30,553 nucleotides of DNA, taken from NCBI GenBank assembly GCA_030637805.1, contig DAOWFV010000136.1:1-30553 (forward strand). The letters are read 5' to 3'. The translations under genes were made by a program, and so were the position numbers. Positions 1 through 30,553 of this stretch are shown piece by piece (within the stretch, counting starts at the first letter, position 1; the number at the start of each line of letters is the position of its first letter). The stretch is from Acidobacteriota bacterium. Its GTDB lineage: Bacteria; Acidobacteriota; Thermoanaerobaculia; Thermoanaerobaculales; Sulfomarinibacteraceae. The notes below the pieces were generated by a model. It made no database searches. It saw only the letters and a program-made list of their open reading frames with translations, and was not told where the DNA came from.

Positions 1-579
1 CCGGGGGTCGATTCGATCTCAAACGTCTGCGGAGCCTGCCATGTCATGAACATGGAGCTCTTTTTGGCATCGCCTCACGCCGAGGCCTTCAGCGCCATGG
101 AGCTCGCAGCGTGCGAGGCGTGCCACGGCAACCACGAGGTCCTCCTGCCGAATGATGATTGGTTGGGGGTGGATGAGGAGAGCGTCTGCGGCCGGTGCCA
201 TGAACGCGATGACACGGGCGGCGAGGTTGCTCTGGCGCTCCGGGCTCTGATGGATCGAGGCGCCGGTGTCCTGCTCGACGCGCGTTCGAAGGTGGACGAC
301 GCCGAACGGGCGGGCATGCTGATGGAGGATTCGGCGGTGGCCCTCGAGGAGGCCTATCAGGAGCTGGTGACCGCCAGGACCCAGGTCCACCTCGTGTCCG
401 TGGCGGCGGTCGAGGAGCACACCGCGGCGGCCCTGGAGGCAGCCGAGTCCGCGCTGGCGGACGCCGCCGAAGCTCGGGAGGAGATTCGCTTCCGGCGCAG
501 CGGTCTGCTCATTGCCTTGGTTTTCATCCTTCTCGCGATCGTTGCCCTGGTGCTCAAAATCAGACAGCTAGAACGCTGA
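1..579 (+). CDS. Multiheme cytochrome c, C-terminal part (5' end outside window), with C-terminal membrane anchor
   Basis: Frame 1 is open from base 1 (PGVDSISNVCGACHVMNMELF...). Three CxxCH heme motifs are visible (CGACH, CEACH, CGRCH), then an Ala/Glu-rich helical stalk and a hydrophobic tail GLLIALVFILLAIVALVL. Confidence 0.85.
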   Translation, partial: PGVDSISNVCGACHVMNMELFLASPHAEAFSAMELAACEACHGNHEVLLPNDDWLGVDEESVCGRCHERDDTGGEVALALRALMDRGAGVLLDARSKVDDAERAGMLMEDSAVALEEAYQELVTARTQVHLVSVAAVEEHTAAALEAAESALADAAEAREEIRFRRSGLLIALVFILLAIVALVLKIRQLER

Positions 580-678
580 ATTCTCAATTCTCAATTCTTA
601 ATCCTCAATTGTCAGTTGTTCCCCCGACCAGTCGGTAATTGGAAACAACTTAAAATTGAGGATTGAGAATTGAGAATT
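579..678. repeat. Heptamer-armed palindrome, family 1 (TTCTCAA arms)
   Basis: Left arm TTCTCAA-TTCTCAA-TTCTTAA-TCCTCAA; right arm TTGAGGA-TTGAGAA-TTGAGAA. Inner imperfect stem AGTTGTTCC/GGAAACAACT encloses CCGA-CCAG-TCGG. It fills the gap between two convergent genes. Confidence 0.9.
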
Positions 679-686
679 TGTGATTG

Positions 687-1283
687 TCACCTGATTCCTG
701 CGAACGCGTCATAGAGTTCCCTGAAGCACAGCCTTAGGTTGCCGTCGTGGCGACGAAACAGTTCTTCAAGGATGGGGTCGAGACGATCGGCGTGCTCAGG
801 CGTCAGCTCGCACACGAGGTCGGCGAGCAGCTCGGGCGAGGTTTGGCAGTCGACGAGCGTCGGGAGCCTTCCCGGTCGGTGGCTGGTGATTACCAGGCGC
901 CTGGCGTTTCGGCATCTCCTCCGCAGCATGAGGCGGCCCGCCGCGCCGAGCAGGCCGGCGCAGTCCACCAACACCGAGTGCCGGCCGTCTACGGGGTGGG
1001 GGAGCCGCGCGGTGACTGTGCTCCATGGTCGCCGGCTGGTCCCTGAGAGCGGCACGAGCGCCACCTCGCCGTCGAGTCGCCGGGAGAGCTCCTCGAGGAG
1101 GGTCGTCTTGCCGCTGCCCTCGGGACCGACGACATCAGCCCGGCCGCCGAGAGCATCGAGCCGTTCGGCGAGATCCTCCGGCTTCGGTCCGGTTGGGCGG
1201 AAACCGAGTGCATCGATGCGGTGACTGGCGAACGGGTTGTCCGCCGGGCGGATCCGGAGTCTGGCGCGCCGGTCAAAAACCAT
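687..1283 (-). CDS. Small P-loop NTPase (AAA+-like)
   Basis: Walker A GPEGSGKTT; Walker B-like VLVDC; C-terminal GNLR resembling an AAA+ lid/sensor-2; start overlaps the upstream gene's stop by 11 nt. Confidence 0.75.
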   Translation of the reverse strand: MVFDRRARLRIRPADNPFASHRIDALGFRPTGPKPEDLAERLDALGGRADVVGPEGSGKTTLLEELSRRLDGEVALVPLSGTSRRPWSTVTARLPHPVDGRHSVLVDCAGLLGAAGRLMLRRRCRNARRLVITSHRPGRLPTLVDCQTSPELLADLVCELTPEHADRLDPILEELFRRHDGNLRLCFRELYDAFAGIR

Positions 1284-1653
1284 CAGGTCTCCCCAGCTGG
1301 ACCTCGATCGGCTGCGGGCCGATCACCAGATCGAGGCGCTCGCTCACTCCACCCGGGTTCACGACCAGTTCGAGCGCCCATGAAAGGGTGATCAGCTTGC
1401 CCGAGAACGAATAAGGGCCGTCGGATGCCTGAAGACGGAAGGACCGGTTGCCGTTCTGTCCGGGAACCGAGGTGCGGGAGGAGTCCACGATTTCGACGTC
1501 CCGGGTCCCTTTCCCGCTCGTGTACCAGAAGAGGCGGATTTCGAGGTCATCGGCGTCGGTGTCGAGCAACCAGGACACATCGCCTTCGATGATCTCACCG
1601 GGCCGGAACCAGGTGCGTCCTCCGTCGGTGCGGATCGTCAGCATGTCCGTCAT
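1273..1653 (-). CDS. Hypothetical protein, 126 aa, probable arrestin/SpoOM-like beta-sandwich
   Basis: ATG at 1653 with GGAGG 8 nt upstream and an ATGA overlap with the upstream stop. Sequence MTDMLTIRTDGGRTWFRPGEIIEG...PYSFSGKLITLSWALEL. The fold call is inference. Confidence 0.7.
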   Translation of the reverse strand: MTDMLTIRTDGGRTWFRPGEIIEGDVSWLLDTDADDLEIRLFWYTSGKGTRDVEIVDSSRTSVPGQNGNRSFRLQASDGPYSFSGKLITLSWALELVVNPGGVSERLDLVIGPQPIEVQLGRPDGF

Positions 1654-3344
1654 CGGGCGGCCTCCGGCTTCAGCGGTAGGACGGCGATCGGGAACTCGTC
1701 GTCGACGTCGGGCCAGCGGTGAATCTCGCCCTCGACCTTGATCGACCAGACGATCTTGTTGTGCAACGCGGCGAAGCTGTGCATGGTGTCCTCGGGGAGG
1801 AAGACCTCGGCGACCCCCTTGCCGATCTCCCAATAGTTGACGGTGTCGATCAGGCCGAGGGTGGCGAAGACCTCGGTATCGGTGTGGGTGTCTGTGCCGC
1901 GTTGGTACGTCGCCTCCTCCTTCCCTTCGATGACGATGGTGAGGTGGTTGATCCGCGAGCTTCTGCCCGTGAACCGCCACTCGACCCGCAGGTCGTCACC
2001 GAGGCGGGGTTGCGCGGGAAGAAGCACCAAGTTCGGCCGTGGGTTGGCGAGGGCGAGCGCAAAGTAGAAGATGCCCACGGCGAGGCCCAAACCTACCAGG
2101 ACGAACGGCACCGTGAATATCGTCAGAAACCAGTCAGGTCGCCCGCTCTGCCATCCTTTGATGACCTGCCACACTAACACGCTGACAATTCCGTTCCAGA
2201 CGAGGGCGACCAGGACGATGCCGAAGAACTTGGCGGCCGGGGAGGTCGAAGATTCCAGCTCGACCGATTCGCCCCCGCTGGGCTCGGCGATCACCGCCGG
2301 ATCCGCTGATCTTCGATTCTTACGGGCCACCTTGCGGCTGTGCGCCACCAGCGCTCCGCCGGCGAGGACGAAGATCAGCGGCAGCAGACCGAGAAGGTAG
2401 GTCGGCCGGAAACTCCGGTCGAGGACGGCTCGAGTGGGATCCTCGGGATCGACCCAGCACCTTCCTTCGGTCCCTGGAGGGTATTGATCGACGACTTCCT
2501 TCTTGCCGGCATACCCGCTCGAGCTGACGTCGAGGAAGCCATAGCGGTTGCTGCGCCAGGTGCGGCCCGAGTACTCGTACTCATAGAGGATGTCGATTTT
2601 GTAGGTGGTGCCGTCGTCGGAGGTGTGGGAGCGAACGGTTGAGGAGATCACGGTGCATGGAACCTCGGGCCAGGAGATTGCGCGCACGAGCCGGATCATG
2701 GGCAGCATGAAGACCGCGACGAACACGACAACGCCGACGACAACGAAGACGAGGCCCATTACCAGAAGCACCCGATGGCCCCCTTGTCCCCGGGCCCCCT
2801 GTGAGATCGAGACAGTCTCCTGATCCGCCTGCGCCCGGCCCGGACGCCAAATCACGAACAGCCCACCGCCGCCGATGACGACGAAGACGAGCGGAAGAAG
2901 GACCATCAACGCCGTCCACGGCACCGACCGCTCGAGCACGGCCCGCGACGGGTCGGCCGGATCGACGTAACACGTCGTTTCACTGTCCTGCTCGTAGCGC
3001 AGTGCGCGGCGTTGAGCCTTGCCGAAGTCGCTCTCGGTGTTCGCCCTGCGGGACACCCGGTCGCCGAGGTGCTCCTGACCGTCGACCGCGTATCGGTATC
3101 GCACCGAGGCCTCGAAGGGTTGTTCATCGTCACCGCTGTCCACGACCTCGCTCGACACGATCGTGCACGGGGTGGGGTCCCAACGCCAGGTCGCGACGTC
3201 GCGCACAGTCTCACCGATGAGCATGACGAGGAAAAACAACCCCATTCCGAGGAACAGCCCGAAGAAAACTGAACCGACGAGCTTGCCGAAGACAGACCGG
3301 CAGCCGGTTCCCTCGCTGTCACCGGACGAGATAGAAATTCGCAC
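1650..3344 (-). CDS. Membrane protein with two DUF3592-like repeats and a C-terminal soluble beta domain
   Basis: Internal duplication: W..tPCTivSSeV...Y.Y and CYVDPADPSRAVLERS versus CWVDPEDPTRAVLDRS, each flanked by hydrophobic helices. GTG start is uncertain. Confidence 0.8.
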   Translation of the reverse strand: MRISISSGDSEGTGCRSVFGKLVGSVFFGLFLGMGLFFLVMLIGETVRDVATWRWDPTPCTIVSSEVVDSGDDEQPFEASVRYRYAVDGQEHLGDRVSRRANTESDFGKAQRRALRYEQDSETTCYVDPADPSRAVLERSVPWTALMVLLPLVFVVIGGGGLFVIWRPGRAQADQETVSISQGARGQGGHRVLLVMGLVFVVVGVVVFVAVFMLPMIRLVRAISWPEVPCTVISSTVRSHTSDDGTTYKIDILYEYEYSGRTWRSNRYGFLDVSSSGYAGKKEVVDQYPPGTEGRCWVDPEDPTRAVLDRSFRPTYLLGLLPLIFVLAGGALVAHSRKVARKNRRSADPAVIAEPSGGESVELESSTSPAAKFFGIVLVALVWNGIVSVLVWQVIKGWQSGRPDWFLTIFTVPFVLVGLGLAVGIFYFALALANPRPNLVLLPAQPRLGDDLRVEWRFTGRSSRINHLTIVIEGKEEATYQRGTDTHTDTEVFATLGLIDTVNYWEIGKGVAEVFLPEDTMHSFAALHNKIVWSIKVEGEIHRWPDVDDEFPIAVLPLKPEAAR

Positions 3345-3379
3345 GGTCGACGTCCCGGTTCGATTCTACCCCGAGAGCC

Positions 3380-3466
3380 GAATTCTCAATTCTCAATTCC
3401 AACCCACCCACAAATGTGCGTGGGGCACCTGATCATTGAGAATTAAGAACTGAGAATTGAGAATTC
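3380..3466. repeat. Heptamer-armed palindrome, family 1 (TTCTCAA arms)
   Basis: GAATTCTCAATTCTCAATTC ... TTGAGAATTAAGAACTGAGAATTGAGAATTC, with inner hairpin CCCACCCAC-AAAT-GTGCGTGGG. Confidence 0.9.
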
Positions 3467-3540
3467 TATTCAGCTGGTTTTTGCCAGGCCGTTTGAGGGT
3501 TTTTGCCGTGGTGTTGTAGGGAAGGCGCTGGACCTTCCGA

Positions 3541-3912
3541 TTATCCTTCGTCGGCGTGCTCTACGCCCGTGCCCATGAGATCGGCCACGTGCTGGTCTAC
3601 CAGGCTGTAATAGACCATTCGGCCATCACGGCGGGCCCGAACCAGGTCGCGGTCGCGGAGCAGGCGGAGCTGGTGGCTGACGGCGGAAACCGACAGCTCG
3701 GCGAGCACGGCAAGATCACAGACGCAGAGTTCTTTCGTAACCGTCAGCGCGTGCAGGATCTTGAGCCGAGTGGGATCGGACAGCGCTGAGAAGAGTCTGC
3801 TCAGCCGTTCGATGGTGTGGACCGGCAGCGCACGCTTCTGGACGAAGGCGACGGCCTCGGGATCAATCTCGTTGATCGTACAAGTTTCGTAGGTGGACTC
3901 GTTCTCATTCAT
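3541..3912 (-). CDS. ArsR/SmtB-family metal-responsive transcriptional repressor
   Basis: LSDPTRLKIL, ELCVCDLA, SAVSHQLRLLR, RRDGRMVYY; C-terminal DQHx10HADE; GGAG upstream of the ATG. Confidence 0.93.
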   Translation of the reverse strand: MNENESTYETCTINEIDPEAVAFVQKRALPVHTIERLSRLFSALSDPTRLKILHALTVTKELCVCDLAVLAELSVSAVSHQLRLLRDRDLVRARRDGRMVYYSLVDQHVADLMGTGVEHADEG

Positions 3913-3988
3913 GGGCGCATTCTCCCAGAATCCCGCTCCCCGGTCAATCAGGACACCTGGGTGGGGGATTCACGATGTTTAATTAGCG

Positions 3989-4384
3989 TCAGCCCTTCAC
4001 GGCCTTGTGACCATAGAAAATCAATCCCGCCTCGCCATCCCAAGCCACCCGCCGGAACTCGAGCCTGACGGGCATGCCGATCTCCAGCTCCTCGGGGTCG
4101 GCGAGATCGCCGACCTGCATCATCACCTTGACGCCGTTCGTAAGCTCCACCAGGGCGATCGGTAGTGGGGACTGCTCGGTGTATCCAGCCGGGGGCACGC
4201 GGACCACCGTAAAGGTCACCACCTTTCCCTCGCGAGGGAGGGGGGTGGTCTCGAAGGTGCATCCCCCGCAGTCGGGACACACCACGCGAGGCGGGTAGAG
4301 AACCTTCTCGCACCCCTCGCAACGGGCGGCTTCGAGACGGTACCGTTGCGGAAACTCGCGCCAGGATCGCGCCGGAGAAATCAT
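3989..4384 (-). CDS. DUF35-family Zn-ribbon/OB-fold protein (thiolase/HMG-CoA synthase scaffold)
   Basis: CEGC-x10-CPDC zinc ribbon followed by an OB-fold (GKVVTFTVV...IALVEL...GMPVRLEFR); ATG at 4384 overlaps the thiolase stop (ATGA). Confidence 0.92.
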
Positions 4385-5544
4385 GACGCCACCTCCAGGA
4401 TGTGCACGGTGGAGCTGCCGCCGGAACCGCCCATGTTCTGGGCCAGGCCGATTGTGGCTCCCTCCACCTGTCGCTGACCCGCCTCGCCCCAAAGCTGGGT
4501 CGCGATTTCGGCCACCTGCGCCACGCCGGTGGCCCCCACCGGGTGGCCCTTGGATTTGAGGCCGCCGGATGGGTTCACCGGAATCTTGCCGTGCAGCGAG
4601 GTGAGGCCCTTATCCACCGCCGACGCGCCGAATCCCGGATCGAAGAGCCCGATTGCCTCGGTGGTCATTATCTCGGCGATGGTGAAGCAGTCATGGACCT
4701 CGACCACGTGCAGTTCCTCGGGCTTCCTCCCGGCCATGGCGTAGGCTCTTTCGGCGGCCAGACGCACTCCATCGAGCTGCGAGAGGTCGTTGCGATTGGC
4801 GAGAGCCATGGTGTCGGTGGCGAGGCCAGAGCCGGTGATCTTCACCATCGGCCGCTCGCTCCCGAGCTCGCGCGCCCGTTCCACGGTCGTGATGACCAGA
4901 GCGGCTGCGCCGTCGGTGACCGGAGAGCAGTCGAGCAGGTGCAACGGGTCGGCGACCATCGTGGAGGCAAGCACGTCTTCGACGCTTACCTTGAGGTGGT
5001 ACTGGGCGTGTGGGTTGAGCAGGCCGTTGGCGTGGTTCTTGACCGCAACCGCGGCAAGCTGCTCCGAGGTCGTGCCGTGACGCTGCATGTGTACTTGCGC
5101 CAACATCGCGTACAGACCGGGGAAGGTGATGCCGTGGAAACCTTCCCACTCCTGATCGGCGGCGGTGCCCAGGGCGAAAGTGGCATCGGCGCCGTCTACG
5201 TCCGTCATCTTCTCGACGCCGGTGACTAGCACCGTGTCGGAGAGCCCGCCTGCGACCTCGGCGAAAGCCATGCGCAGGGCGAGACCGCCGGACGCACAGG
5301 CTGACTCGACCCGCGCGGCCGGGACTCCGGCCATACCGAGCTCGTCGGCGAGCAGCGAGGCGAGGTGCTCCTGGCCGGCGAAGAGGCCCGGAGACATGCA
5401 CCCGATGGTCACCATATCCACCGAATCAACGCCGGCGTCGGTCAGGGCGGCGAGGGCCGCCTCGGCCCACATGGTGCGCAGGGATTTTTCCCAGAGCTCG
5501 CCGAAATCGATCATTCCAATGCCTACGACAGCGACATCTCGCAT
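4381..5544 (-). CDS. Thiolase, archaeal/SCP2-like type (acetyl-CoA acetyltransferase)
   Basis: VESACASGG (catalytic Cys), [17 protein letters not shown], and AQNMGG in place of the classical CxG; ATG at 5544 with GAGGGG upstream. Confidence 0.93.
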
Positions 5545-5555
5545 TGCCACCCCCC

Positions 5556-6614: not shown

Positions 6615-6670
6615 GGGTCCTCCAGGTGTTGAGATCGGGTCGCCTGTCGCGATATTCGCGCAGCCGAATA

Positions 6671-6699
6671 AGTCTACACAGGCGGAATAATAGTGTAAA
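6671..6699 (-). promoter_or_regulatory. Sigma70-type promoter for the HMG-CoA synthase operon
   Basis: Minus strand TTTACA-N17-TAGACT, 57 nt upstream of the HMGS start codon. Confidence 0.6.
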
Positions 6700-6716
6700 G
6701 CCGGCCGCGGGCCGCT

Positions 6717-6886
6717 TCAGGTCTCAGGTCTCAGGTCACAGGTCTCAGGTCACAGGTTACAGGTCGCACTGAAATTTCGATTGAATTCCTGCAATGTCAA
6801 CTGTTCTATTCCCTTTCTATACCTCTCATTCGTGACCTCCGCGCTTGCAAAAACCTGAAGCCTGAGACCTGTGACTTGCGACTTGC
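6717..6886 (-). repeat. Family 2 element (TCAGGTC arms, conserved core), reverse orientation
   Basis: About seven TCAGGTC/ACAGGTC units at 6717-6766 and inverted CCTGAAG-CCTGAGA-CCTGTGA-CTTGCGA at 6853-6886. The reverse-strand core TTGACATTGCAGGAATTCAATCGA...GTGCGAC matches the copies at 15025 and 26480. Confidence 0.85.
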
Positions 6887-6929
6887 TATGACCGGAGACG
6901 GTAGAATCGGTCCCCAGTGGAGGTGCGGG

Positions 6930-8240: not shown

Positions 8241-8255
8241 AGCGCAGACCAGAGC

Positions 8256-8580
8256 ATTAGGAATTCGGAATTCGGAATTAGGAATTAACGGCGCGGGGAG
8301 GCGACCGAGTGGCTCAAAGTGTTGTGCCCGCGCTGGGGCACTCTCGGGGCGCGCTCCGGCAGAAGGTCGCGACACCTTTCAGAAGCGCAAATCCGTAGCT
8401 TTGGAACACGCGACGATCTGGAGTACTCGTACCCTCCGGGCGCCAGTACCCCGCCGACGGTAGCGGTTTGTTGCCGCACCCGGCGAAATTGAGAATTGAG
8501 AATTGAGAATTGCAGATCGAGCTATCTCCGATTTGGGCAAGCGTCCTTAACTCAAAACTCAAAACTAAGAACTCAAAACT
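8256..8580 (+). repeat. Family 3 composite element (TTCGGAA/TTAGGAA left arm, conserved GC-rich core, AACTCAA right arm) plus an internal AATTGAG array
   Basis: Arrays at 8256-8287, 8487-8512 and 8549-8580. Core 8289-8347 is 49/59 identical to the reverse complement of 13766-13824. Confidence 0.85.
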
Positions 8581-8637
8581 CCTCGCAGGGAGTCCTCCGC
8601 GAGGTTCCCGAGCTCCGACAGCGATATACTCCGGATA

Positions 8638-13627: not shown

Positions 13628-13684
13628 CCCGGACTACTCACCAGCTTCCTGCCGCGGCCAATTTCGCTGCCGTAGGCAGGCGTC

Positions 13685-13851
13685 GAGTTTTGAGTTCCGA
13701 ATTTGTGGCGCTCGCAAGGGTGCGGTGAACTGCTGACTCCGAGGCGAAATCTCTTCTATCGCGCGCCGAGAGGGCACCAGCGCGGGCATGACGCTCCGAG
13801 CCACTCGATCGCTTCGCCGCGCCGAAAAATTCGAAATTCGAAATTCGAAAT
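13685..13851 (-). repeat. Family 3 element, reverse orientation
   Basis: GAGTTTTGAGTT at 13685 and (AAATTCG)x3 at 13828-13851 abutting the trmB stop. The core shares CTGCTGACTyCGAGGCGA, GGGTGCGGTGA and CGCGCCGA with 22239-22502. Confidence 0.82.
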
Positions 13852-14925: not shown

Positions 14926-15123
14926 TCAGGTCTCAGGTCTCAGGTCTCAGGTCACAGGTCTCAGGCTACACAGGCTTCAGGTATCAGGTCTCATTGAAAA
15001 ATTCATGAAAGTTGCAGAAAAGGCTTGATATCGCAGGAGTACAACCGATGATTCGGTTGCGACTTGCGATGTGCGCCCTGAGACCTGAGACCTGCATCCC
15101 AATTCCGAATTCCGAATTCTCAA
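14926..15123 (+). repeat. Family 2 element with an abutting AATTCCG array
   Basis: TCAGGTC-type units at 14926-14993. Segment 15015-15099 is 74/85 identical to 26470-26554 and includes the inverted CCTGAGA units. AATTCCG-AATTCCG-AATTCTC follows at 15101-15121. Confidence 0.9.
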
Positions 15124-17177: not shown

Positions 17178-17293
17178 CGCGCTTCTGATAGGTGACGCGG
17201 CCATTTTTTGTCGCGCCCCGGCGCGGGCATTTAGCCTCGAGCCGCTCGATCGCCTTCGCGCGCCGACAATTCCGAATTCCGAATTCCGAATTC
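17178..17293 (-). repeat. Family 3 element (partial), reverse orientation
   Basis: (AATTCCG)x3 at 17268-17293. The reverse-strand core CGGCGCGCGAAGGCGATCGAGCGGCTCGAGG...TGCCCGCGCCGGGGC and CACCTATCAGAAGCGC match 8289-8388. Confidence 0.82.
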
Positions 17294-17375
17294 AACCCAC
17301 GTCCGCGTCCGCGCCCGCGTCCGTTCCCGACAACTCGCCTTGACGAACCACCGATCGCTGCCGCACGATAGAGGC

Positions 17376-19070: not shown

Positions 19071-19146
19071 TGGAGCGGGCAACGGGACTCGAACCCGCGA
19101 CATTCAGCTTGGGAAGCTGACACTCTACCAGCTGAGTTATGCCCGC
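19071..19146 (-). tRNA. tRNA-Gly (anticodon CCC)
   Basis: Reverse strand GCGGGCA-TA-ACTC..GGTAGAGT-G-TCAGC-TTCCCAA-GCTGA...GCGGGTTCGAGTCCCGT-TGCCCGC-T-CCA; 76-nt cloverleaf, U73 discriminator, encoded CCA. Confidence 0.97.
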
Positions 19147-19226: not shown

Positions 19227-19243
19227 TTGGTACGAGCATTGCT
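19227..19243 (+). promoter_or_regulatory. Sigma54 (-24/-12) promoter upstream of the pilin-like gene
   Basis: TTGGTACGAGCATTGCT versus consensus TGGCACG-N4-TTGC; exactly 10 nt separate GG from GC. Confidence 0.65.
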
Positions 19244-19256
19244 TGTCTTGGATTCC

Positions 19257-19718: not shown

Positions 19719-19777
19719 CGCTAAGCGTCATTCCCCGTCGAAAGGAGTGGCGTCGAGGGGCATCGGCGGAAGCGGAG

Positions 19778-20971: not shown

Positions 20972-21048
20972 GTGATACCTCCTTCTCGCTTCAGGAATCG
21001 TACGCCCGACCTCACGCCGCGTCCAATTCAATGCGCGAGATCTACGGG

Positions 21049-22197: not shown

Positions 22198-22238
22198 ACA
22201 CCATCTCCTTGACGGAATCAAGAGGCGGAAGAGAAGAG

Positions 22239-22502
22239 AGTTCTCAGTTTTGAGTTCTTAGTTTTGAGTTACGGGCGCCCTGCGGGTGCGGTGACCCACC
22301 GCCGTAAGCGGGTGGCCCGCGATTGGGCGCGTTCCGGCGACGGGCTGCTGACTTCGAGGCGACCTTCTATCGTCGCGCGTCCCGAGAGGATGCCAGGGAC
22401 CTTCGAAGTAACGCGCCCAAGCGCGGCCGACATGCCCCGAGGTCCCCAGTCGCCTCCTCGCGCCGATAATTCCTAATTCCTAATTCCTAATTCCCAATTC
22501 CT
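22239..22502 (-). repeat. Family 3 element, full length, reverse orientation
   Basis: AGTTTTG/AGTTCTT array at 22239-22271 and (AATTCCT)x4 at 22468-22500. Reverse-strand core CGGCGCGAGGAGGCGA...CCGCGCTTGGG...CTCTCGG...AGAAGGTCGC. Confidence 0.87.
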
Positions 22503-22531
22503 CGCGCCCTATGGGCGCCGCGAGGGCCGTG

Positions 22532-23371: not shown

Positions 23372-23484
23372 CGGTTTACTCAACTAGGACGCCCCGAGTA
23401 TACGGGGTGCCGGCTGATTCTCGTAGCGGGGTGGGCGCGATTCGCAGGGTGCAACCGAAGGTCAATTCGGCGGATGCGAGGTGG

Positions 23485-25329
23485 ATGAGCGCCTCATCGA
23501 GGTGCTCTGCCCAGACCGGCTGTCGCTTTTCTCGAAGGGCTGGACAACGAGTCGGGAATCTCGTTGTGGCCTGCCTGCTCCTGGTCCCCGCGGTGGTGTG
23601 GTGCGCCGAACGCGACCCGCGGATCATCGACATCTCCTTTGAGCCGCACGGCACGATCCGCTGGGAACGTGGAGGGCATCCGGTGCTCCTCGTGGTCCCG
23701 AGATCGGGTGAAGGCTGGATCACCCTGGCGCAGCGCCTCACCGGCAGCCAGGCTACGGTGGGGTCGCTGCGGCGCGCGAATCCTCGTCTCCAAGCGCCGC
23801 TCCGTGACCGTCCCGTACGGGTGCCGGTGGAGATCCTGCGCGGGGATCTCCGGCTCGACGCGGTGCGACGGCTCTTCCCGGTGGACAAACGAACGGTCCT
23901 GGGCTGGCAGCACTGGATCCTCGACCCGTTCCGTGATGGCGAGGGGGAGGAAAGTTGGGAGTGGTTGGCCGAGCTCTTCACTGGGAGGACAGACCTGGCG
24001 GGAGATCTCAAGAGGACCAACCCGGAGCTTGTCGCCACAGGGCTGAAACGCGGGCGTCCGCTAATCATCCCGGAGGCGCAGCTCTTGGGCGTCTTCAGCT
24101 CGCTGACACCGGTGGCGACCCCTACACCGGTCGCCACGCCCACGCTGCCGCCCGTTTCCACGGTCGTGCCCTCACCGATGGTCGCCCCCCGCCCCGACGG
24201 CGGCGGCCCCCTCGACTACGGCGTCGACCGATTCGGTGAGTACGCGATCTACCGGCTACAGAAGGGCGAGGCGCTGTACTCGGCGGTGGTCGTGCGGTTC
24301 ACCGGGCAGCTTCTCGCCAGACAGGTCAACGAGACCGCAATGACGATCGCCCGGCGCTCGGGCATCGATGATGTCACCGATATTCCGGTCGGGTATCCCG
24401 TCAAGATCCCCTTCGAGCTGCTGCTCCCGGAATACCTTCCGCCCGACAACCCGCGTCGCCTGGCGTGGGACGAGGGAAGGCGCGAGCTGGCGCACTTTCT
24501 CGAGGTGGTCCATGCGACCGACCTCTCCGGCGTGCAGGTGGTCCTCGATGCGGGGCACGGCGGAAAGGACACCGGTGCGGTCGTGAACGGCGTCTGGGAG
24601 GCAACCTATGCCTACGACATCATGTGTCGGATCAAGGCGAACCTCGAACGCCATACCCGCGCTACCGTATGGACCACCATCGAGGACGCGAAACGCGGCT
24701 GTACGACCCCTCCGCTGGACAGGCTCGAGCAGAGCCGTGACGCATTCCTCCGGACCCGGCCCCCGTACCGGCTCGATGACGCGGTGCTAGGGGTCCACCT
24801 GCGCTGGTACCTCACGAACGACATCATCCTCAACCGGCTCGATTCCAGCGTACCGCGTTCGAAGACGGTCTTCCTCTCGGTGCACGCAGACTCTCTCCAC
24901 CCGAGCGTGCGCGGCGCGATGGCCTACGTACCGTCCAGGTACCTGCGTCCGACAAAGCCATATACCGTCAGACGCCGGGACATCCAGCGGTTCGCCGAGT
25001 ATCGAAATCACCCCACGGTTCGCCTCGGACCCGAGTTCAAGGCGCGGGTCGAGGCATCTTCGCGGCACATGGCTGAAAGAATCCTGGGCAGCCTCGAACG
25101 AAACGAGATCGCGATCCACCCCTACGATCCAGTCCGTGACCGGGTTCTCCGCGGTCGGCGGAGCTGGGTGCCGGCGGTGTTGCGATTTACCGCGGCCCAG
25201 AATGCGGTGCTCCTGGAGTGCTGCAACATGGCCAACGAGCAGGATCGCTCCTTACTCCTGGAGCAGGAGTGGCGGGAGCGCTTCGCGCGCGCTGTGGTCG
25301 AGGGAATGGCGTCAGCGTTTTCGAGATAG
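23485..25329 (+). CDS. N-acetylmuramoyl-L-alanine amidase (Amidase_3) with N-terminal LysM-like modules
   Basis: VLDAGHGGKD, GVWE, FLSVHAD and AVLLECCN zinc/catalytic motifs; signal-like segment; T/P linker; ATG 23485 follows GAGG (start uncertain). Confidence 0.88.
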   Translation: MSASSRCSAQTGCRFSRRAGQRVGNLVVACLLLVPAVVWCAERDPRIIDISFEPHGTIRWERGGHPVLLVVPRSGEGWITLAQRLTGSQATVGSLRRANPRLQAPLRDRPVRVPVEILRGDLRLDAVRRLFPVDKRTVLGWQHWILDPFRDGEGEESWEWLAELFTGRTDLAGDLKRTNPELVATGLKRGRPLIIPEAQLLGVFSSLTPVATPTPVATPTLPPVSTVVPSPMVAPRPDGGGPLDYGVDRFGEYAIYRLQKGEALYSAVVVRFTGQLLARQVNETAMTIARRSGIDDVTDIPVGYPVKIPFELLLPEYLPPDNPRRLAWDEGRRELAHFLEVVHATDLSGVQVVLDAGHGGKDTGAVVNGVWEATYAYDIMCRIKANLERHTRATVWTTIEDAKRGCTTPPLDRLEQSRDAFLRTRPPYRLDDAVLGVHLRWYLTNDIILNRLDSSVPRSKTVFLSVHADSLHPSVRGAMAYVPSRYLRPTKPYTVRRRDIQRFAEYRNHPTVRLGPEFKARVEASSRHMAERILGSLERNEIAIHPYDPVRDRVLRGRRSWVPAVLRFTAAQNAVLLECCNMANEQDRSLLLEQEWRERFARAVVEGMASAFSR

Positions 25330-25558
25330 ATTCACCCGCCCGCGGCGCCCGGTCATGGCAACCGCACCCGATGTTCTTCTGAGGCGCCTTTGACAATCAA
25401 CACAACCTCCTGCTATCGCGCTCCCCGAGGGAGCCCCCTTTGAGGTTTTGGGACTCAGCGGTGTTCTTTCCTCGGCGTGGCTGCTCCCAAAACCATCAAA
25501 GACGGCACGCCCGGTCAAGAGCGCCCACACCTGAGATCAGCCGGCCGCAGAGCGCGGG

Positions 25559-25585
25559 TAACTAAGAACTAAAAACTCAAAACTA
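25559..25585 (+). repeat. Isolated AACTCAA-type heptamer array (family 3 right arm)
   Basis: TAACTAAGAACTAAAAACTCAAAACTA, the same units as at 8549, 22239 (reverse) and 27938. Confidence 0.8.
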
Positions 25586-25698
25586 AACCCCCTTTCCCCG
25601 TGTTGGTGCTCCGGGTCACGTTCAACGCCTTGCGTGCGGCATCGACGCGACCCACATTAGAGGTAGGGAAGCATATCGATCGCTCGGAGGGAGGCGTC

Positions 25699-25992
25699 AT
25701 GAGGTCCTACCTTGTATTGACAGAGAACGGTCCTCTCCTCGTGATGACCTCCCGTTCGCGCATCACCGAGGATGCCCTCCTCGAGTCACTGCACCGAAAA
25801 GGCATCGACAAGTTCATCGCCTACGAGGTGCCGGTGGACAGGGTTCACGAGTTCTACGGCCTTCCCTTCGAGGTGATCGCGGCCGACCTCGACCAGGGCA
25901 AGGAGATGAGGGTCCTCGACTTTGACGGCCGCCACATCTTCGACTGCCTCTCTCTCGCTGAGCTCGGCCAGGAGATTCATTTCGAGCATTGA
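25699..25992 (+). CDS. Conserved hypothetical small protein, 97 aa (paralog 1)
   Basis: GGAGG RBS; 53/97 identical to the next gene (KFIAYEVP, EVIAADL, RVLDF.G.HIF). Confidence 0.85.
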   Translation: MRSYLVLTENGPLLVMTSRSRITEDALLESLHRKGIDKFIAYEVPVDRVHEFYGLPFEVIAADLDQGKEMRVLDFDGRHIFDCLSLAELGQEIHFEH

Positions 25993-26041
25993 GCCCGGTT
26001 CACGGGCTACAATGAGAAGCCGACTCAGGATTGGGGGTCGA

Positions 26042-26347
26042 ATGCGCGCCTACATCATCTTCTCCGGGACCGGTCCGATCCTCGTTCTCACCACATACCC
26101 CGCGCTCACCGACAGACGATTGATCGAGAAACTCGCCCACAAGGGAATCGGGAAGTTCATCGCATACGAGGTTCCGACCCCGCGGGTGCATGAGATCTAT
26201 GGTGTGCCCTACGAGGTGATTGCCGCCGATCTCGAGATCGCTGAAGATCTCCGTGTCCTGGACTTCAACGGCCATCACATCTTCAGCTGCTTTTCGTTTG
26301 CCGAGCTCGGAGACCCGATCAAATGCGGCGACGGTCAGGCGGGTTGA
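26042..26347 (+). CDS. Conserved hypothetical small protein, 101 aa (paralog 2)
   Basis: Tandem paralog of 25699-25992; TACAAT at 26008-26013 suggests its own promoter. Confidence 0.85.
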   Translation: MRAYIIFSGTGPILVLTTYPALTDRRLIEKLAHKGIGKFIAYEVPTPRVHEIYGVPYEVIAADLEIAEDLRVLDFNGHHIFSCFSFAELGDPIKCGDGQAG

Positions 26348-26381
26348 ACACCTGCCCGGCAGATACTCGATTCCACCCGCT

Positions 26382-26554
26382 TCAGGTCTCAGGGATCAAG
26401 TCACAGGTCTCAGGCTTCAGGTCTCAGGCTTCAGGTCTCAGGCTTCAGGGTTCAGGTAGCAAAAAGATCCAGAAAAAACTTGACATCGCAGGAGCCCAAC
26501 CGACGATTCTGGTGCGACTTGCGATGTGCGACCTGCGACCTGAAACCTGCATCC
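26382..26554 (+). repeat. Family 2 element
   Basis: About ten TCAGGTC/TCAGGCT-type units at 26382-26457, core TTGACATCGCAGGAGCCCAACCGA, then inverted CTTGCGA/CCTGCGA/CCTGAAA units. Confidence 0.9.
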
Positions 26555-26606
26555 AGCATCCGGCTTCGCCCTTTGGGCTACGCCGTGACAAGTCCAGCAT
26601 CTCGAT

Positions 26607-27218
26607 TCAGCGTGAGACCATCGACCAAAAATCCAGGCCGCAGGCTGCGAACAGCTCCGGTAGGCGGTGGATAGGCAAGCCGACCACTGTGTGCGGCGAA
26701 CCCTTGACCGCAGAGACCAGCAAACCACCGAGCCCTTGGATCGCGTAGGCGCCGGCCTTGTCCATCGGCTCTCCCGTGGCCACGTACCAGCGGATCACCC
26801 GGTCGCTCAGCCTCACTATCTCGACGGTGGCGGTGTCGACGAGGTCGTGGCATCGTTCGTCCACCGCTGGAAGCTGGTGAGATCTGTGGGCAAAAGCCAC
26901 GGCGGTGTGCACTTGGTGCTCCCTCCCGGAGAGAGCGCGCAGCATCTCCTCAGCCTCGCCGTTGGAACCGGGTTTTCCGAGGATGGCGCCGTCCACCTCG
27001 ACCACGGTGTCCGCACCGAGTACCGGTAGGCTGGCGCGTCCGGCGACCTCGAGGGCCTTGTCCCTAGCGGCTCTTCGTGCGAACGCCGTCGGCGCCTCCC
27101 CGGGTTTGGGCACCTCCTCAACCTCTGCCGGACACACCCGGAAAGGCATGCCAATCAGCTCGAGGAGCTGTCGCCGCCGGGGCGAAGCACTGGCGAGGAT
27201 TAATCGTGCCTCGGTCAC
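26607..27218 (-). CDS. maf: Maf-family nucleoside triphosphate pyrophosphatase
   Basis: LILASASPRR, GADTVV, ILGKP, HQVHTAV, DKAGAYAIQG, VVGLP. Confidence 0.95.
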   Translation of the reverse strand: MTEARLILASASPRRRQLLELIGMPFRVCPAEVEEVPKPGEAPTAFARRAARDKALEVAGRASLPVLGADTVVEVDGAILGKPGSNGEAEEMLRALSGREHQVHTAVAFAHRSHQLPAVDERCHDLVDTATVEIVRLSDRVIRWYVATGEPMDKAGAYAIQGLGGLLVSAVKGSPHTVVGLPIHRLPELFAACGLDFWSMVSR

Positions 27219-27288
27219 CAGCTCGCTCGTTTAATCGGCGGCCGGTCGCAGGGATTCACGTCCGCCTGGTCGATAGCAGGTACCAGTT

Positions 27289-27819
27289 TCAGCGCTCCTC
27301 GCTCGCCTTCACGATCACCACCGATTCCCGGCGGTCGAGGATCTCAACCAGCGTGCCTTCAGGGATCGGATGGTCCTCCTCGGAGCGCGCGGCCAGCTTG
27401 AGCTGTGCGCCCTCGACCGAGACCTCGACCTGGCCGTAGCCGTTGGCCGGGATCTCGCGAATCACCCGGACCTTCTGTAGGTCGTTGGCGAGCTGCTCGC
27501 TCGGATCGCAGACACGGCTCAGCCAGAATCTCAAGACGAAAATCCCCACAACGCCGGCGACGGCGCCGACCGCTATCTCATGGATCGGCGCAAAGGAGGT
27601 GAGACCGTGAACCAACAGGCTCGCCAGCCCGAAGAGGGTCAAGAACGACGCCAGCAGGTCAGCGGCGGGGAAACGGAGGCCGTGGAGGTGCTCGTGGGAC
27701 GGGAGAACGACGTGGTCGCAAAGCTCGCATGGGTGGAGAAGGCGTCGGGCGAAACCAGTCACCATGGCCAACGTGAATCCACCGAGAAAGATGATGAGGT
27801 AGCCGAAACCCCAGGTCAC
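27289..27819 (-). CDS. NfeD-like membrane protein with C-terminal OB-fold
   Basis: Three hydrophobic helices then VIREIPANGYGQVEV...AARS...IPEGTLVEILDRRESVVIV; TATAAT 6 nt before GTG 27819. Confidence 0.75.
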   Translation of the reverse strand: MTWGFGYLIIFLGGFTLAMVTGFARRLLHPCELCDHVVLPSHEHLHGLRFPAADLLASFLTLFGLASLLVHGLTSFAPIHEIAVGAVAGVVGIFVLRFWLSRVCDPSEQLANDLQKVRVIREIPANGYGQVEVSVEGAQLKLAARSEEDHPIPEGTLVEILDRRESVVIVKASEER

Positions 27820-27858
27820 GGGAGGATTATAGCTCGGCACGGCGGAGGAAGGAGCTCA

Positions 27859-27976
27859 GAATTAGGAATTAGGAATTCGGAATTCGGAATTACCGGCGCG
27901 GGGAGGCGGCCGGGCTGGTTTGGGGCCGGGTGCCCGTAACTCAAAACTCAAAACTAAAAACTCAAAACTGAGAACT
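27859..27976 (+). repeat. Family 3 element, short form
   Basis: AATTAGG x2 and AATTCGG x2, then CGGCGCGGGGAGGCG (identical to 8289), a short core, GGGTGCCCG and an AACTCAA array at 27938-27976. Confidence 0.88.
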
Positions 27977-27986
27977 GGGCCTGACT

Positions 27987-28943
27987 CTACCCGGTCCACT
28001 TCGGCGTTGCGATCAGGTCTGAGCCTTCCGGCAGATATTGTCTGATGTCCTCCGGCGGGGGGCAGATGACACGCAGAGGATCACCGCTCGCTGGGTGGGG
28101 GAGGGCGAGGGAGGCGGCGTGCAGGAGGGGCCGCCCCGCATCCCCGGGACGCCTTGATCCGTAGAGCCGGTCTCCGAGGACCGGGTGACCGATGGAGGCA
28201 AGGTGGATCCTCACCTGATGGGTTCGCCCGGTGATCAATCGGCAGAAGACGACGGTCAGATTCTCCTCGAGCCTGGCCGACACCCGCACCTCGGTGCGCG
28301 CCGGTTTGCCGCCGGGCGCGGTGTGGAAGCGCCATGTATGGCCATAATCTCGGGCGATCGGAAGATCGATTTCGGTGGCATCGAACGAAGGCCGTCCTTC
28401 AACCACCGCGAGGTAGAGACGTTCGACCCGGCCATCGGTCCAGGCGCGGCTCAGAGCGGGCAGGGTGTTGGCACGGCGAGCAAAGAGCACCGCCCCACTG
28501 GTCATTCTGTCGAGGCGGTGGACCATGCGGAGAAAGGGCCTTCGTCCTTCGCTCAGCGCCAGGGCGAGCAGCACCTGCTGGTCGAATGACGACTCCTCCC
28601 TCGGGCCGCGGTCGGTCGGCTGCGAGAGGACTCCGGCGGGTTTGGCCGCTACCAAAAGCCAGCGATCATCGTGGAGAATCGTCGGGGTCTCCAAGGCGGG
28701 CTCTCGCAGGCATCCCAGCTCCTCGCGGGACCGCAACACGTCGATAATGTCGCCGGTTTCCAGGATTCGGGACTGGACCCGCAGCGCCTCAGCATTGCGC
28801 CGCACGAGACCGTCCGCAACCAGGCGGCGCGCCCCCCGCCGGCTGAGCTCCGTGGTCCCGGCGAGGAAGAGGTCGAGGCGTTCGCCCTCCCACCGTGGGG
28901 TCACCAGGAGGCGCGTGATGCCGGGGTTCGCAGTCTCGCTCAC
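27987..28943 (-). CDS. RluA-family pseudouridine synthase with S4 domain (RluD-like)
   Basis: GERLDLFLA...LSRR S4 domain; KPAGVLS, HRLDRMTSG (catalytic Asp), TGRTHQVRIH, HPVLGD, LLHA; GTG start overlaps the upstream stop (GTGA). Confidence 0.93.
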   Translation of the reverse strand: MSETANPGITRLLVTPRWEGERLDLFLAGTTELSRRGARRLVADGLVRRNAEALRVQSRILETGDIIDVLRSREELGCLREPALETPTILHDDRWLLVAAKPAGVLSQPTDRGPREESSFDQQVLLALALSEGRRPFLRMVHRLDRMTSGAVLFARRANTLPALSRAWTDGRVERLYLAVVEGRPSFDATEIDLPIARDYGHTWRFHTAPGGKPARTEVRVSARLEENLTVVFCRLITGRTHQVRIHLASIGHPVLGDRLYGSRRPGDAGRPLLHAASLALPHPASGDPLRVICPPPEDIRQYLPEGSDLIATPKWTG

Positions 28944-30412
28944 ATCTCGGGCTTGACGACGCGGGTGGCGGGCAGTGCCCGAGTACGCGCCCAGGAGCGG
29001 ATTGTCTTCAACTGCACCTCCATGGTGCGCGACAGGGGGATGATCTTCCCGAACGCGGCCAGAAGGTCGTTCTGCGAGACCTCGATGCCGCGGGCGTGGG
29101 CGGTGATCCGAGCCGATGCGACCGCCTGCTCGATCTCGGCCCCGTTCCAGGTACGGGTGGCGGAGGCGAGGAGAATAAGGTCGTAATTTGCCGGATCGAG
29201 GTCGTTGCGCTGGAGATGGATGCTCATGATCTCCTTGCGCTCCTCTTCGTTCGGCAGATCGACGAAGAAGACCTGGTCGAATCGTCCCTTGCGCAGGATC
29301 TCCGCGGGCAGGAGGTTGATCCGGTTGGCGGTCGCGGCTACGAAGACGTCGGCGCGGTGCTCCTGCATCCACGTGAGAAAGGTGGAGAAGATTCGCGTGT
29401 TGGAACCCGTCTCTCCTTCGTGGTAGCCGGCGATACCCATCTCGATCTCGTCGATCCACAGCACTGCGGGCGCTACCGACTCCACCGCCTCGAGGGCGCG
29501 ATGGAAGATCCATTCCGCCGAGCCCTGGACGCCGGCGAAGACGAGGTTCATGTCGAGGCGGAAGAGCGGCAAGCGCCACTGGCGGGCGATAACCTTCACA
29601 GCAAGGCTCTTACCGCAGCCGGAGATGCCCATCATCAGCACGCCTCGCGGTCTGGGAAGGCCCTGCTTTCGCGCCTCGGGCAGGAAGAGGCTGCTACGTT
29701 CCGCCACCCACTCCTTGAGCTGGTCGAGGCCCCCGAGACCGCTGAGAGACTCGTCCGGCGGCACGAACTCGAGGATTCCCTCTTTGCGGGTGATCTGCTC
29801 CTTCTCGTCGAGCACCTCGCGGAAGAAGTCCTCGTCGAGCGCAGTGTGGCGGTCGAAGAGGCGGCGTATCAGATGCTCCGCCTCGGTAAGGGACATTCCC
29901 TTGAGGGATCCGACGAGACGTTCGACATCGGCGTCCTTCTCGCGGCGCCCCTGGAGAAGGGACGCGACGAGAGCGCTCAGCTCGCCGTCATCGGGGAAGA
30001 GAGAAATCACGACGTAGCTCAGAGGTTTTATCGAGTCAGGGAGGAGCGCGTCTTGCTGGAGCAGAAATAGAAAGCGCCCGCTGTTGCGGATCTTCATCGC
30101 GGTGTCGCGCAGTCTGCGCAGCAATCGGCGGTCGTCAAGCTGGTTCCCGAGGTCTTTGAAGAGGTACAGACCCCTGGGCGCATCGGCGGCAATCCACGCC
30201 AGGGCCTCCATCGGGTCCCGGTGGAGGTCGGATCCGTTGTCGAGAAAGCCGTCGACGCAGTTCCACACCACCACCGGAAGTTCATCCGGTTTGGCGGCGG
30301 CGGCGAAGCGCTGAAGCAGGTTTTCCTGGCGCTCCTCCTCGGGGCTCACAAGCACGGTGATCGGGTAGGCCGAGGCGAGGGCTGTTCGGATCTGATCGAG
30401 GGTGCTGCGCAT
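28940..30412 (-). CDS. Ycf46-like AAA ATPase
   Basis: N-domain GLYLFKDL; GGLDQLKEW, PRGVLMMGISGCGKS, LWIDEIE, ATANR, LRKGRFDQVFFVDLP; C-terminal IRSWA. Confidence 0.9.
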   Translation of the reverse strand: MRSTLDQIRTALASAYPITVLVSPEEERQENLLQRFAAAAKPDELPVVVWNCVDGFLDNGSDLHRDPMEALAWIAADAPRGLYLFKDLGNQLDDRRLLRRLRDTAMKIRNSGRFLFLLQQDALLPDSIKPLSYVVISLFPDDGELSALVASLLQGRREKDADVERLVGSLKGMSLTEAEHLIRRLFDRHTALDEDFFREVLDEKEQITRKEGILEFVPPDESLSGLGGLDQLKEWVAERSSLFLPEARKQGLPRPRGVLMMGISGCGKSLAVKVIARQWRLPLFRLDMNLVFAGVQGSAEWIFHRALEAVESVAPAVLWIDEIEMGIAGYHEGETGSNTRIFSTFLTWMQEHRADVFVAATANRINLLPAEILRKGRFDQVFFVDLPNEEERKEIMSIHLQRNDLDPANYDLILLASATRTWNGAEIEQAVASARITAHARGIEVSQNDLLAAFGKIIPLSRTMEVQLKTIRSWARTRALPATRVVKPEM

Positions 30413-30427
30413 TGCAGGTCTATTGTA

Positions 30428-30465
30428 CCCGCAACAGCCGGAACAGGGGTTCCGGCTGTTGCGGG
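30428..30465. other. Perfect 17-bp inverted repeat (terminator of an upstream gene, or operator)
   Basis: CCCGCAACAGCCGGAAC-AGGG-GTTCCGGCTGTTGCGGG, directly adjacent to minus-strand TACAAT (30422-30427). Confidence 0.75.
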
Positions 30466-30480
30466 GGCTGTCACCCTACG

Positions 30481-30553
30481 CGATACTCGATACTGGATTC
30501 TCGATAATCGATCCGGCCACCGACCTGATTCTCGATACTGGATACTCGATTCC
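30481..30553. repeat. Heptamer array of a fourth sequence type (GATACTC/GATACTG/GATTCTC), truncated by the window edge
   Basis: CGATACTCGATACTGGATTCTCGATA ... GATTCTCGATACTGGATACTCGATTCC. The final 13 nt GATACTCGATTCC also occur at 26362-26374. Confidence 0.8.

Follow-up and report, generated by a model that had tools for sequence, protein, structure and literature searches.

We analysed a stretch of 30,553 nucleotides, here called the window, which forms a contig of a metagenome-assembled genome (MAG) of a Candidatus Sulfomarinibacter-like acidobacterium (class Thermoanaerobaculia, a marine-sediment group), and we concentrate on the tandem arrays of 7-nt units (heptamers) in its intergenic spacers. 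The MAG, referred to as G000, comprises 1.93 Mb in 264 contigs with 65% GC and is 65% complete. The genes of the window are ordinary housekeeping genes. Tandem Repeats Finder (TRF), which was used for the array calls, reports 22 non-redundant period-7 arrays in these 30.5 kb, none of which (0 of 22) lies inside a called coding sequence. This is in good agreement with the original prediction, made from the sequence alone, that heptamer arrays occupy twelve spacers and avoid coding sequences. Every unit listed there is present, and eleven of the twelve spacers were recovered by TRF; the one at 13685 stays below the TRF score and exhibits only about 2.5 degenerate units, seen by eye.

Palindromic elements with heptamer arms

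The period-7 arrays are not free microsatellites but the inverted arms of small, dispersed palindromic intergenic elements. They form inverted pairs, which fold far better than shuffled sequences (z of -9.2, -6.5 and about -4). Family A represents a plain hairpin of the form (AATTCTC)n-loop-(GAGAATT)n. Its element at 579-678 consists of (AATTCTC)5.1 at 579-614, a 39-nt loop and (GAGAATT)3.6 at 654-678; it takes up the convergent spacer, its first unit overlaps the TGA of the open reading frame (ORF) at 46-579, and its RNA fold reaches -49 kcal/mol (z -9.2 against shuffles). The element at 3381-3465 pairs (AATTCTC)2.7 at 3381-3399 with (ATTGAGA)4.4 at 3435-3465, folds with a z of -6.5 on both strands and holds a small CCACCCAC/GTGGGG hairpin in its loop. 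The same loop carries the motif CCACCCRCCC / GGGYGGGTGG, a run of CCCR tetramers that recurs beside arms in several species, located in loops or just beyond the arrays (L006, L150, L151 and L154 flanks).

Family B is composed of (TCAGGTC)n, an 83-nt core and (GACCTGN)n, and its core occurs in 59 copies in the genome. The plus-strand element at 14926-15094 comprises (TCAGGTC)9.4 at 14926-14993, the conserved core at 14994-15076 and (CCTGAGA)2.6 at 15077-15094. In the element at 26383-26550, likewise on the plus strand, (CAGGTCT/CAGGCTT)n at 26383-26456 is followed by a core 82% identical to 15008-15112 and by a 3' arm of GACCTGC/GATGTGC units at 26512-26550. A plus-strand variant at 6717-6885 lies in the divergent spacer upstream of pepP; it has (TCAGGTC)7 at 6717-6765, an 86-nt core with 10 copies in the genome and a 3' arm at 6852-6885 built from CCTGAAG, CCTGAGA and CCTGTGA, and folds with a z of -3.9. 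The family B core (14994-15076, 26457-26511) is strongly conserved and resembles a sigma-70 promoter, with an A-rich tract, TTGACA, 16 nt and GAnnAT, and it also holds a small hairpin with apparent compensatory variants (CGCAGGA...TGCG versus CCAGGA...CTG). A function of this core as promoter of the neighbouring genes was rejected, since the downstream gene is co-oriented in only 20 of 46 cases and the orientation is random.

Family C combines (GAGTTTT)n, a GC-rich mosaic core with about 50 copies in the genome, and (AATTCCN)n. A full element is found on the plus strand at 22238-22502, where it occupies the spacer between two minus-strand genes with (GAGTTYT)4.7 at 22238-22270, a GC-rich mosaic core of 196 nt and (TAATTCC)5.1 at 22467-22502. 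The short element at 27859-27976 on the minus strand has (GGAATTN)4.9 at 27859-27892, a 45-nt GC-rich core and (AACTCAA)4.6 at 27938-27969(76), and folds with a z of -3.4 on the minus strand only. At 13685-13851 (plus strand) the degenerate 5' arm GAGTTTTGAGTTCCGAATTT precedes a GC-rich core and the 3' arm (AAATTCG)3.6 at 13827-13851, which abuts the stop (13852) of a trmB-like gene. The minus-strand element after the pepP stop, 8256-8581, is composite: the terminal module ACGGCGCGGGGAGGCGAC adjoins (GGAATTN)4.6 at 8256-8287, and there are further arrays, (AATTGAG)3.7 at 8487-8512 and (AACTCAA)4.7 at 8549-8581.

Single arms and arrays occur as well. The 3' arm (AATTCCG)3.7 at 17268-17293 (plus strand) directly follows the family C terminal module ...CGCGCGCCGA, and behind it lies the period-6 array (CGTCCG)4 at 17300-17323, an example of the GC-rich hexamer arrays that also occur in spacers. 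A separate array (AATTCCG)3.3 at 15097-15119 adjoins the stop of an ABC-transporter gene, and the solo arm (AACTAAA/AACTCAA)4 at 25560-25587 on the minus strand is accompanied by the module CCGCAGAGCGCGGG. Two direct plus-strand arrays of GATACTC/GATTCTC units at 30477-30550 mark the contig end, where the assembly breaks.

The junctions tie the arm types together. An inner junction, ATCGGCGCGG..., is common to arrays of differing unit type, and approximately half of the GGAATTN, GAATTTC and GAGTTTT arrays join one inner module, (A/T)TCGGCGCGG..., irrespective of the unit. The two family C arms, which share this module, are thus diverged inverted repeats of each other. Handedness is fixed throughout, the G/T-rich arm being always 5' and the A/C-rich arm 3'. 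Accordingly oriented sense-strand units are found after stops in ratios of 28:2 for AATTCTC, 23:0 for GAGTTTT, 18:2 for GGAATTC and 18:0 for GGAATTA, and the pattern is mirrored before starts. This mirroring at 5' and 3' gene ends implies a polarity set by the element and not by transcription. Intrinsic (bidirectional) terminators were considered and rejected, because they have a GC-rich stem with a U-tract 3' of it, whereas the handedness here is reversed, with the U/G-rich arm always 5'; a simple terminator scan gave no enrichment (18 found versus 12.9 +/- 4.1 expected from shuffles).

The sole Rfam or ARAGORN match in the window is a tRNA-Gly(CCC) on the minus strand at 19071-19146. Otherwise the Rfam search of the window yielded miRNA look-alikes below threshold, which stem from the long hairpin at 579-681.

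Abundance, position and turnover of the arrays

The whole of G000 contains 724 period-7 arrays, which cover 25.5 kb or 1.3% of its DNA, compared with 152 arrays of period 6 and 90 of period 8; with about one array per 2.7 kb, this load is among the densest seen. Exact runs of at least three copies number 265 at period 7 versus 12, 3 and 2 at periods 6, 5 and 8. Intergenic location holds for 623 of the 724 arrays, though approximately 88% of the genome is coding, and the 75 calls within genes are mostly 2.4-copy GC-rich chance matches. Both scans, of period and of coding versus intergenic DNA, had been proposed together with the original prediction and bear it out. Six units make up 65% of the arrays, namely AAAACTC (120), AATTCCG (87), AATTAGG (80), AATTCTC (72), ACCTGAG (66) and ACCTGCG (47). 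Array length does not follow a decay curve but has a sharp mode at 32-34 nt, which comprises 205 of the 724 arrays; arrays of two, three, four, five and six whole units number 117, 134, 268, 76 and 35.

The arrays mostly keep to one side of their spacers. The ORF on the 5' side is the closer one for 346 of 384 arrays (median distance 35 versus 187 nt), and within 10 nt of an ORF there are 117 arrays on this side and 5 on the other. Convergent spacers of at least 60 nt hold arrays in 62% of cases, tandem and divergent ones in 34%. The adjacency to stop codons that the original prediction had noted at single sites extends to the genome: 104 of 498 array ends lie at most 5 nt from the adjacent stop, versus 6 of 454 for starts. 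Some arrays themselves provide the stop codon. As a general cause of the adjacency, stop-codon supply was rejected, since neither GGAATTC nor AATTCTC nor TCAGGTC has a stop codon on the strand in question.

The arrays also leave their mark on the assembly. A period-7 array stands at the start or end of 39 of the 264 contigs, and as many as 98 are located within 150 nt of a contig end. Logan unitigs from four runs break at every array, with a depth of 600-4800 at arrays versus about 10 elsewhere. The arrays fragment short-read MAGs of this ecologically important sediment group and probably lower their completeness.

Among related genomes the distribution is patchy. Arrays of the form GAGTTTT x3 occur in 24 of 24 genomes of the genus and in 0 of 16 of the sister family f2; for this count the reversed control is void, since reversal only rotates the repeat. 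AATTCNN x3.7 arrays are found in 38 of 201 genomes of the class, with 13 of 28 in family f1, 17 of 48 in f4, 0 of 20 in f2 and 0 of 29 in f13, and in 35 of 301 genomes of the phylum, where one distant genome holds 579 of them and the reversed control is near 0. These tallies, and those of PF05635 by family given below, include the unpublished genomes G044, G192 and G196, on which no claim depends alone. Exact (AATTCTC)4 arrays were also observed in 31 viral contigs of IMG/VR (L104-L134) with GC contents of 31-62%, some of which carry many other heptamer arrays.

Orthologous sites allow direct observation of what the original prediction had suggested, a drifting unit at constant period. After the ABC-transporter stop (the site of 15097-15119), relatives carry GAATTCC, GAATTCA, AAATTCA or AAACTCA at the same place and in the same phase, a chain of single substitutions that joins the two commonest units of the genome. 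One array (L027) contains four unit variants, and copy numbers at orthologous sites vary between species. After the pepP stop, (GGAATTN)n with mostly 4.6-4.9 units is found in at least 14 other species at approximately 75% protein identity; other species have AGCTGTT hairpins, period-8 NAACGTTC arrays or classical bidirectional terminators at this site.

Comparison of spacers with relatives, as had been proposed, revealed empty alleles. The convergent spacer next to trmB measures 30-50 nt and is empty in 7 relatives, and in the window it reaches 224 nt and holds a family C element; in G002 the same spacer (13628-13851) is filled by a PF05635 ORF with period-6 arms. At another site, where four relatives harbour a filled GGCTTGR cassette, all that is found in G000 is a solo (TAGCCCA)4 arm, which is fused to the stop codon. 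Together with the insertion site in G007 described below, these histories mark gene boundaries as hot spots that are repeatedly colonised by different arm families, and arrays as sequences that can act as targets. The original prediction would have been contradicted by the lack of a period-7 excess or by arrays that are fixed and identical in relatives, without empty alleles; we find period 7 enriched and empty alleles present. One conserved operon (L165, G014:C1:755500-769500; L167, G024:C24) exhibits an armed cassette at nearly every gene junction, with or without an IVP gene, and unit families adjoin there (ATTTCGG, AATTCTC and the period-8 unit AAAGGGGA).

PF05635 cassettes and the origin of the arrays

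A lead given in passing with the original prediction, that small four-helix-bundle (Avd-like) genes may sit between such arms, was confirmed. We fetched and inspected 30 loci of the genus with Avd-like genes of PF05635 (the family of the 23S-rRNA intervening-sequence protein, IVP or S23p), and inverted arrays bracket the gene in approximately 27 of them. The ORF-containing versions that were to be sought between paired arms thus exist as PF05635 cassettes in sister genomes and, in one instance, in G000. In total, 23 of 25 genomes of the genus have PF05635 genes, with up to 70 copies. At the fetched loci the arms have period 7 in about 17 cases, period 8 in about 8 and period 6 in 2-3, and several cassettes carry the window's own units GAGTTTT/AAAACTC, AATTCTC and AATTCAA. 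The single PF05635 gene of G000 (C192:2309-2620) is located inside inverted hexamer arrays, (CGTTCC)4.3 and (CGGGAA)5.7. The protein clade of this locus (2269-2688, L135) has period-6 arms in two other species, too. By family, PF05635 is found in 25 of 28 genomes of f1, 47 of 48 of f4, 13 of 20 of f2 and 1 of 29 of f13; within the class, 37 of 38 genomes positive for AATTCNN arrays have a match, versus 89 of 163 array-negative ones.

Arm period and protein phylogeny go together. In a maximum-likelihood tree of the 30 proteins, IVP clades with 97-100% support each have their own arm period and unit family, and the nearest neighbour has the same arm period in 27 of 30 cases. The clade with GAGTTTT/AATTCTC arms is present with 1-3 copies in 13 of 24 sister genomes. 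Two other readings were rejected for these loci. A diversity-generating retroelement (DGR), as an Avd-like gene might suggest, is not indicated, because PF00078 (reverse transcriptase) has no match in the 65% complete G000 and the IVP genes have no companion between their arms. Loci where two IVP genes lie close together were searched for an enzyme and turned out to be adjacent operon junctions with one cassette each.

One element looks recently active. An element of 850 nt occurs in G007 in at least 12 copies at 96-100% identity (e.g., L169:465-1315; also L168, L171-L176 and L178) and encodes PF05635 as its single ORF. Its inverted ends are long and imperfect, and it is always located within (AACGTTNN)n arrays of period 8. 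The identical part of the copies ends with AACGTT-N-GGTTCATCCGG on both sides, and the arrays around copies of 99-100% identity differ in number and in variable letters, which implies that the arrays there belong to the target site and not to the copied unit. At one of these insertion sites, an orthologous convergent spacer, several states were observed among relatives: no array in G001, 1.5 units in G024, 4-6 units without a gene in G016, G004 and G008, and the filled form in G007. The same spacer has a GATGCTG hairpin in G021, an AATTCTC hairpin in G000 (C59) and unrelated sequence in G012 and G011. Of the features of miniature inverted-repeat transposable elements (MITEs), inverted ends and dispersed conserved cores are present, a duplication is not recognisable and a transposase partner was not found.

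Heptamer arrays also appear to be the target of an IS200-type element. This element encodes a Y1 TnpA of 142 aa (PF01797, E about 1e-38) and has identical CCCCCGGCTTTGCCGGGG hairpins at both ends; insertions after TTCCTAA in direct (AATTCCT)n arrays were seen at two unrelated loci, L082:1359-2030 (G017) and L083:1358-2010 (G014). An enzyme of the RAYT/IS200 type (RAYT, REP-associated tyrosine transposase; REP, repetitive extragenic palindrome) was rejected as the one that spreads the arrays, PF01797 having 0 matches in G000 and being common in the array-free family f2. Membership in the REP/RAYT systems was rejected likewise, as the Y1 genes beside arrays are IS200-type insertions with their own hairpin ends in direct (TTCCTAA)n.

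On balance, we consider it probable that the arrays represent the arms of palindromic elements akin to the intervening sequences (IVS) of 23S rRNA, which are gene-less here, whose period and unit are inherited within a lineage and which turn over at ORF ends. Each element is built from a G/T-rich arm, which is 32-34 nt or about 4.6 units long, a loop or core, and a second, complementary arm. The elements of the window would be versions, 'empty' or with another load, of the cassette that surrounds PF05635 in sister species, and IVP cassettes are presumably what the window arrays derive from or rely on. The arms may pair as a stem of approximately 32 bp, analogous to the stem that RNase III cuts in the 23S rRNA IVS, and the IVP protein may recognise them. 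Point changes might spread within an array by in-register slippage or conversion, such that the unit drifts and the period stays; new sites would be colonised at ORF boundaries while old sites decay, and sites would turn over. How the elements spread, and whether their arms act as DNA or as RNA stems, we can only infer.

Several facts weigh against this reading. The window has no PF05635 gene, and the one gene in G000, at 65% completeness, has hexameric arms; the elements of the window can be called only empty relatives of the IVP cassette. The family B and C cores contain no IVP remnant. G000 and the array-rich genomes G015, G017, G019 and G022 yielded no member of the clade with GAGTTTT/AATTCTC arms, so arrays persist without a detectable cognate gene. 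The co-variation of clade and arm is in part orthology, several clades being located at one conserved site; it demonstrates co-inheritance and is no proof of recognition. From the evidence on the G007 target sites, arrays may pre-date the genes. Finally, we identified neither a target-site duplication nor a transposase nor an excision product.

A mechanism that measures 7 nt, which the original prediction had put forward, is not required, as in-register slippage or conversion preserves any period. In addition, one genus combines periods 6, 7 and 8, every one of them with an IVP clade of its own, which makes a host-wide 7-nt ruler unlikely. The same coexistence, under one replisome, speaks against reading the arrays as plain long simple sequence repeats (SSRs), which would arise locally, wherever selection allows, through replisome slippage favouring 7-nt units and would have neither element identity nor a partner protein. 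We regard this as quite improbable. Tandem head-to-tail 7-nt units in excess over other periods are indeed a feature shared with heptanucleotide SSRs, which, as cited in PMC4679880 and PMC4692102, form the most frequent class of long SSRs in many prokaryotes. Our arrays mix unit variants that differ by 1-2 nt, array-less relatives in one spacer series already possess a single TTCTAACG unit at the gene end, and the viral contigs with AATTCTC arrays are unrelated and span the wide GC range given above. However, a small number of unit families prevails, with the same units at hundreds of loci and in different families of the class, handedness is fixed, arms are paired, the length mode is narrow, cores and junction modules are conserved, and the sister family f2 has none of the arrays in 20 genomes. 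A further explanation takes the arrays as landing pads or footprints of IVP elements and others (such as an IS200-type one) with a specific short target, built by repeated insertion and excision or by fixed-length target duplication, with the cutting geometry of the element as the period. It accounts for the near-identical G007 copies inside differing arrays, for the array-only alleles at the orthologous site, for the IS200-type element within (TTCCTAA)n arrays at two loci and for the clade-specific period. Yet heptamer arms are inverted and not direct and so cannot be accreted target duplications, excision footprints were not seen, arrays outnumber IVP genes 724 to 1 in G000, and it is a single period-8 family, whose core is palindromic, that provides the evidence for pre-existing arrays; we judge this explanation very improbable.

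Selected cis signals at gene boundaries, which would serve 3'-end formation, mRNA processing between cistrons, translation control or insulation independently of a mobile cassette, have to be weighed as well; candidates are arrays or stems to which a host protein or an RNase binds and which selection would keep. They are in good agreement with the (GGAATTN)n of about 4.6 units kept after the pepP stop, where other species have terminators, with the preference for convergent spacers and the tightly constrained length, and with the same positional rule published for Xanthomonas and Nostoc (PMC4692102). Nevertheless we hold them to be unlikely, given a polarity that is mirrored at 5' and 3' gene ends and a handedness opposite to that of an intrinsic terminator. 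Terminator scans are not enriched, family B elements are oriented at random relative to genes, the functions of neighbouring genes show no pattern, and many orthologous sites are empty or hold unrelated unit families.

The IVS-like reading can be extended to a bolder and rather doubtful one. PF05635 proteins might be sequence- and period-specific partners of the arms, each clade reading its own 6-, 7- or 8-nt unit, and the short tandemly repeated repetitive (STRR) sequences of cyanobacteria, GGGAATC, TAACTGA and the repeats of the window might be occupied, vacated or orphaned sites of one ancient cassette superfamily. A pentameric ring has been published for S23p, which an arm of about five units would match. 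If so, a protein-based ruler and not the replisome would set the period.

Comparison with known repeat systems

Heptamer repeats between genes have been known since 1990, and it was in 2007 that their excess over other periods was described. To our knowledge they are still without a mechanism or function, and the S23p/IVP family has been without a function for approximately 30 years. The original prediction had placed the window beside the STRR of filamentous cyanobacteria. This framing is too narrow, as comparable heptamers have been published for Xanthomonas, Nostoc and Beggiatoaceae, and the host is not a filamentous cyanobacterium. STRR membership was rejected: the host is an acidobacterium, and the STRR units CCCCAAT, TTGGTCA and CAACAGT are not among the 45 commonest units of G000.

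The closest published repeats are the heptamers GGGAATC of Xanthomonas and GGGGA(C/T)T of Nostoc, which are intergenic, most commonly have about four units and occur in inverted pairs, too (Rehm et al. 2015, PMC4692102). They adjoin the 5' ORF whatever its orientation, some overlap stops, and divergent spacers are under-used (PMC4692102). Our arrays share the period, the strong intergenic bias and the 5'-ORF rule, and the unit GGAATTC of the window differs from GGGAATC in 2 positions. In contrast, our units are AT-rich, in a genome of 65% GC, and unable to form G-quadruplexes, and there are several unit families and conserved cores. Rehm et al. (2015, PMC4692102) reported no link of the repeats to mobile elements and made no connection with S23p/IVP genes. 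The heptamer SSR excess was described by Mrazek et al. (2007), who proposed the DNA length held by the polymerase as its cause, as cited in PMC4679880 and PMC4692102. The TAACTGA repeats of Beggiatoaceae are mostly direct, forward-oriented and located just upstream of start codons (MacGregor 2015, PMC4679880). The STRR of heterocystous cyanobacteria and TAACTGA resemble our arrays as abundant intergenic heptamers of patchy phylogenetic spread; phylum and units differ, and palindrome pairing and IVP cargo have not been described for them.

In architecture, the IVS of Coxiella burnetii and Leptospira 23S rRNA comes closest, a palindromic stem around a PF05635 (S23p) ORF (Warrier et al. 2016, PMC4990558). 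The Coxiella IVS also carries tandem heptamers (GACAGAT), whose number varies between strains (PMC4990558). The cassettes of the sister species share the build of palindrome plus PF05635. The IVS is located in helix 45 of 23S rRNA and is cut out by RNase III (PMC4990558), whereas the elements described here lie between protein genes in hundreds of copies per genome and enclose no ORF in the window. Our literature search found no paper that links PF05635 to periodic arms, and the paper describing Candidatus Sulfomarinibacter does not mention repeats.

DGR Avd proteins act with nucleic acid. They belong to the same Pfam family, PF05635, and are small basic four-helix bundles; unlike in DGRs, the search of G000 for a reverse transcriptase gave no match, a template/variable repeat pair is lacking, and the genes lie by themselves between arms. 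REP sequences and their bacterial interspersed mosaic elements (BIMEs) as well as MITEs are short, non-coding, palindromic and dispersed in hundreds of copies, with enrichment between convergent genes and presence/absence polymorphism, all of which applies here. They differ in that the arms in our case are tandem arrays with a length mode, and neither a RAYT-type arrangement nor a target duplication was found.

The genus is well suited for tests, as it offers several unit families, periods 6, 7 and 8 with their own clades, a young 850-nt element, and sites in empty, array-only and filled form. The vague idea of measuring 7 nt becomes a set of concrete questions of binding, cleavage and mobility, and IVP a testable partner for heptamer repeats. 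Compared with the systems above, what is new is an acidobacterial case at extreme density, with a clade-specific period, a length mode, a substitution chain at orthologous sites, and evidence that arrays can be a target and not a cargo.

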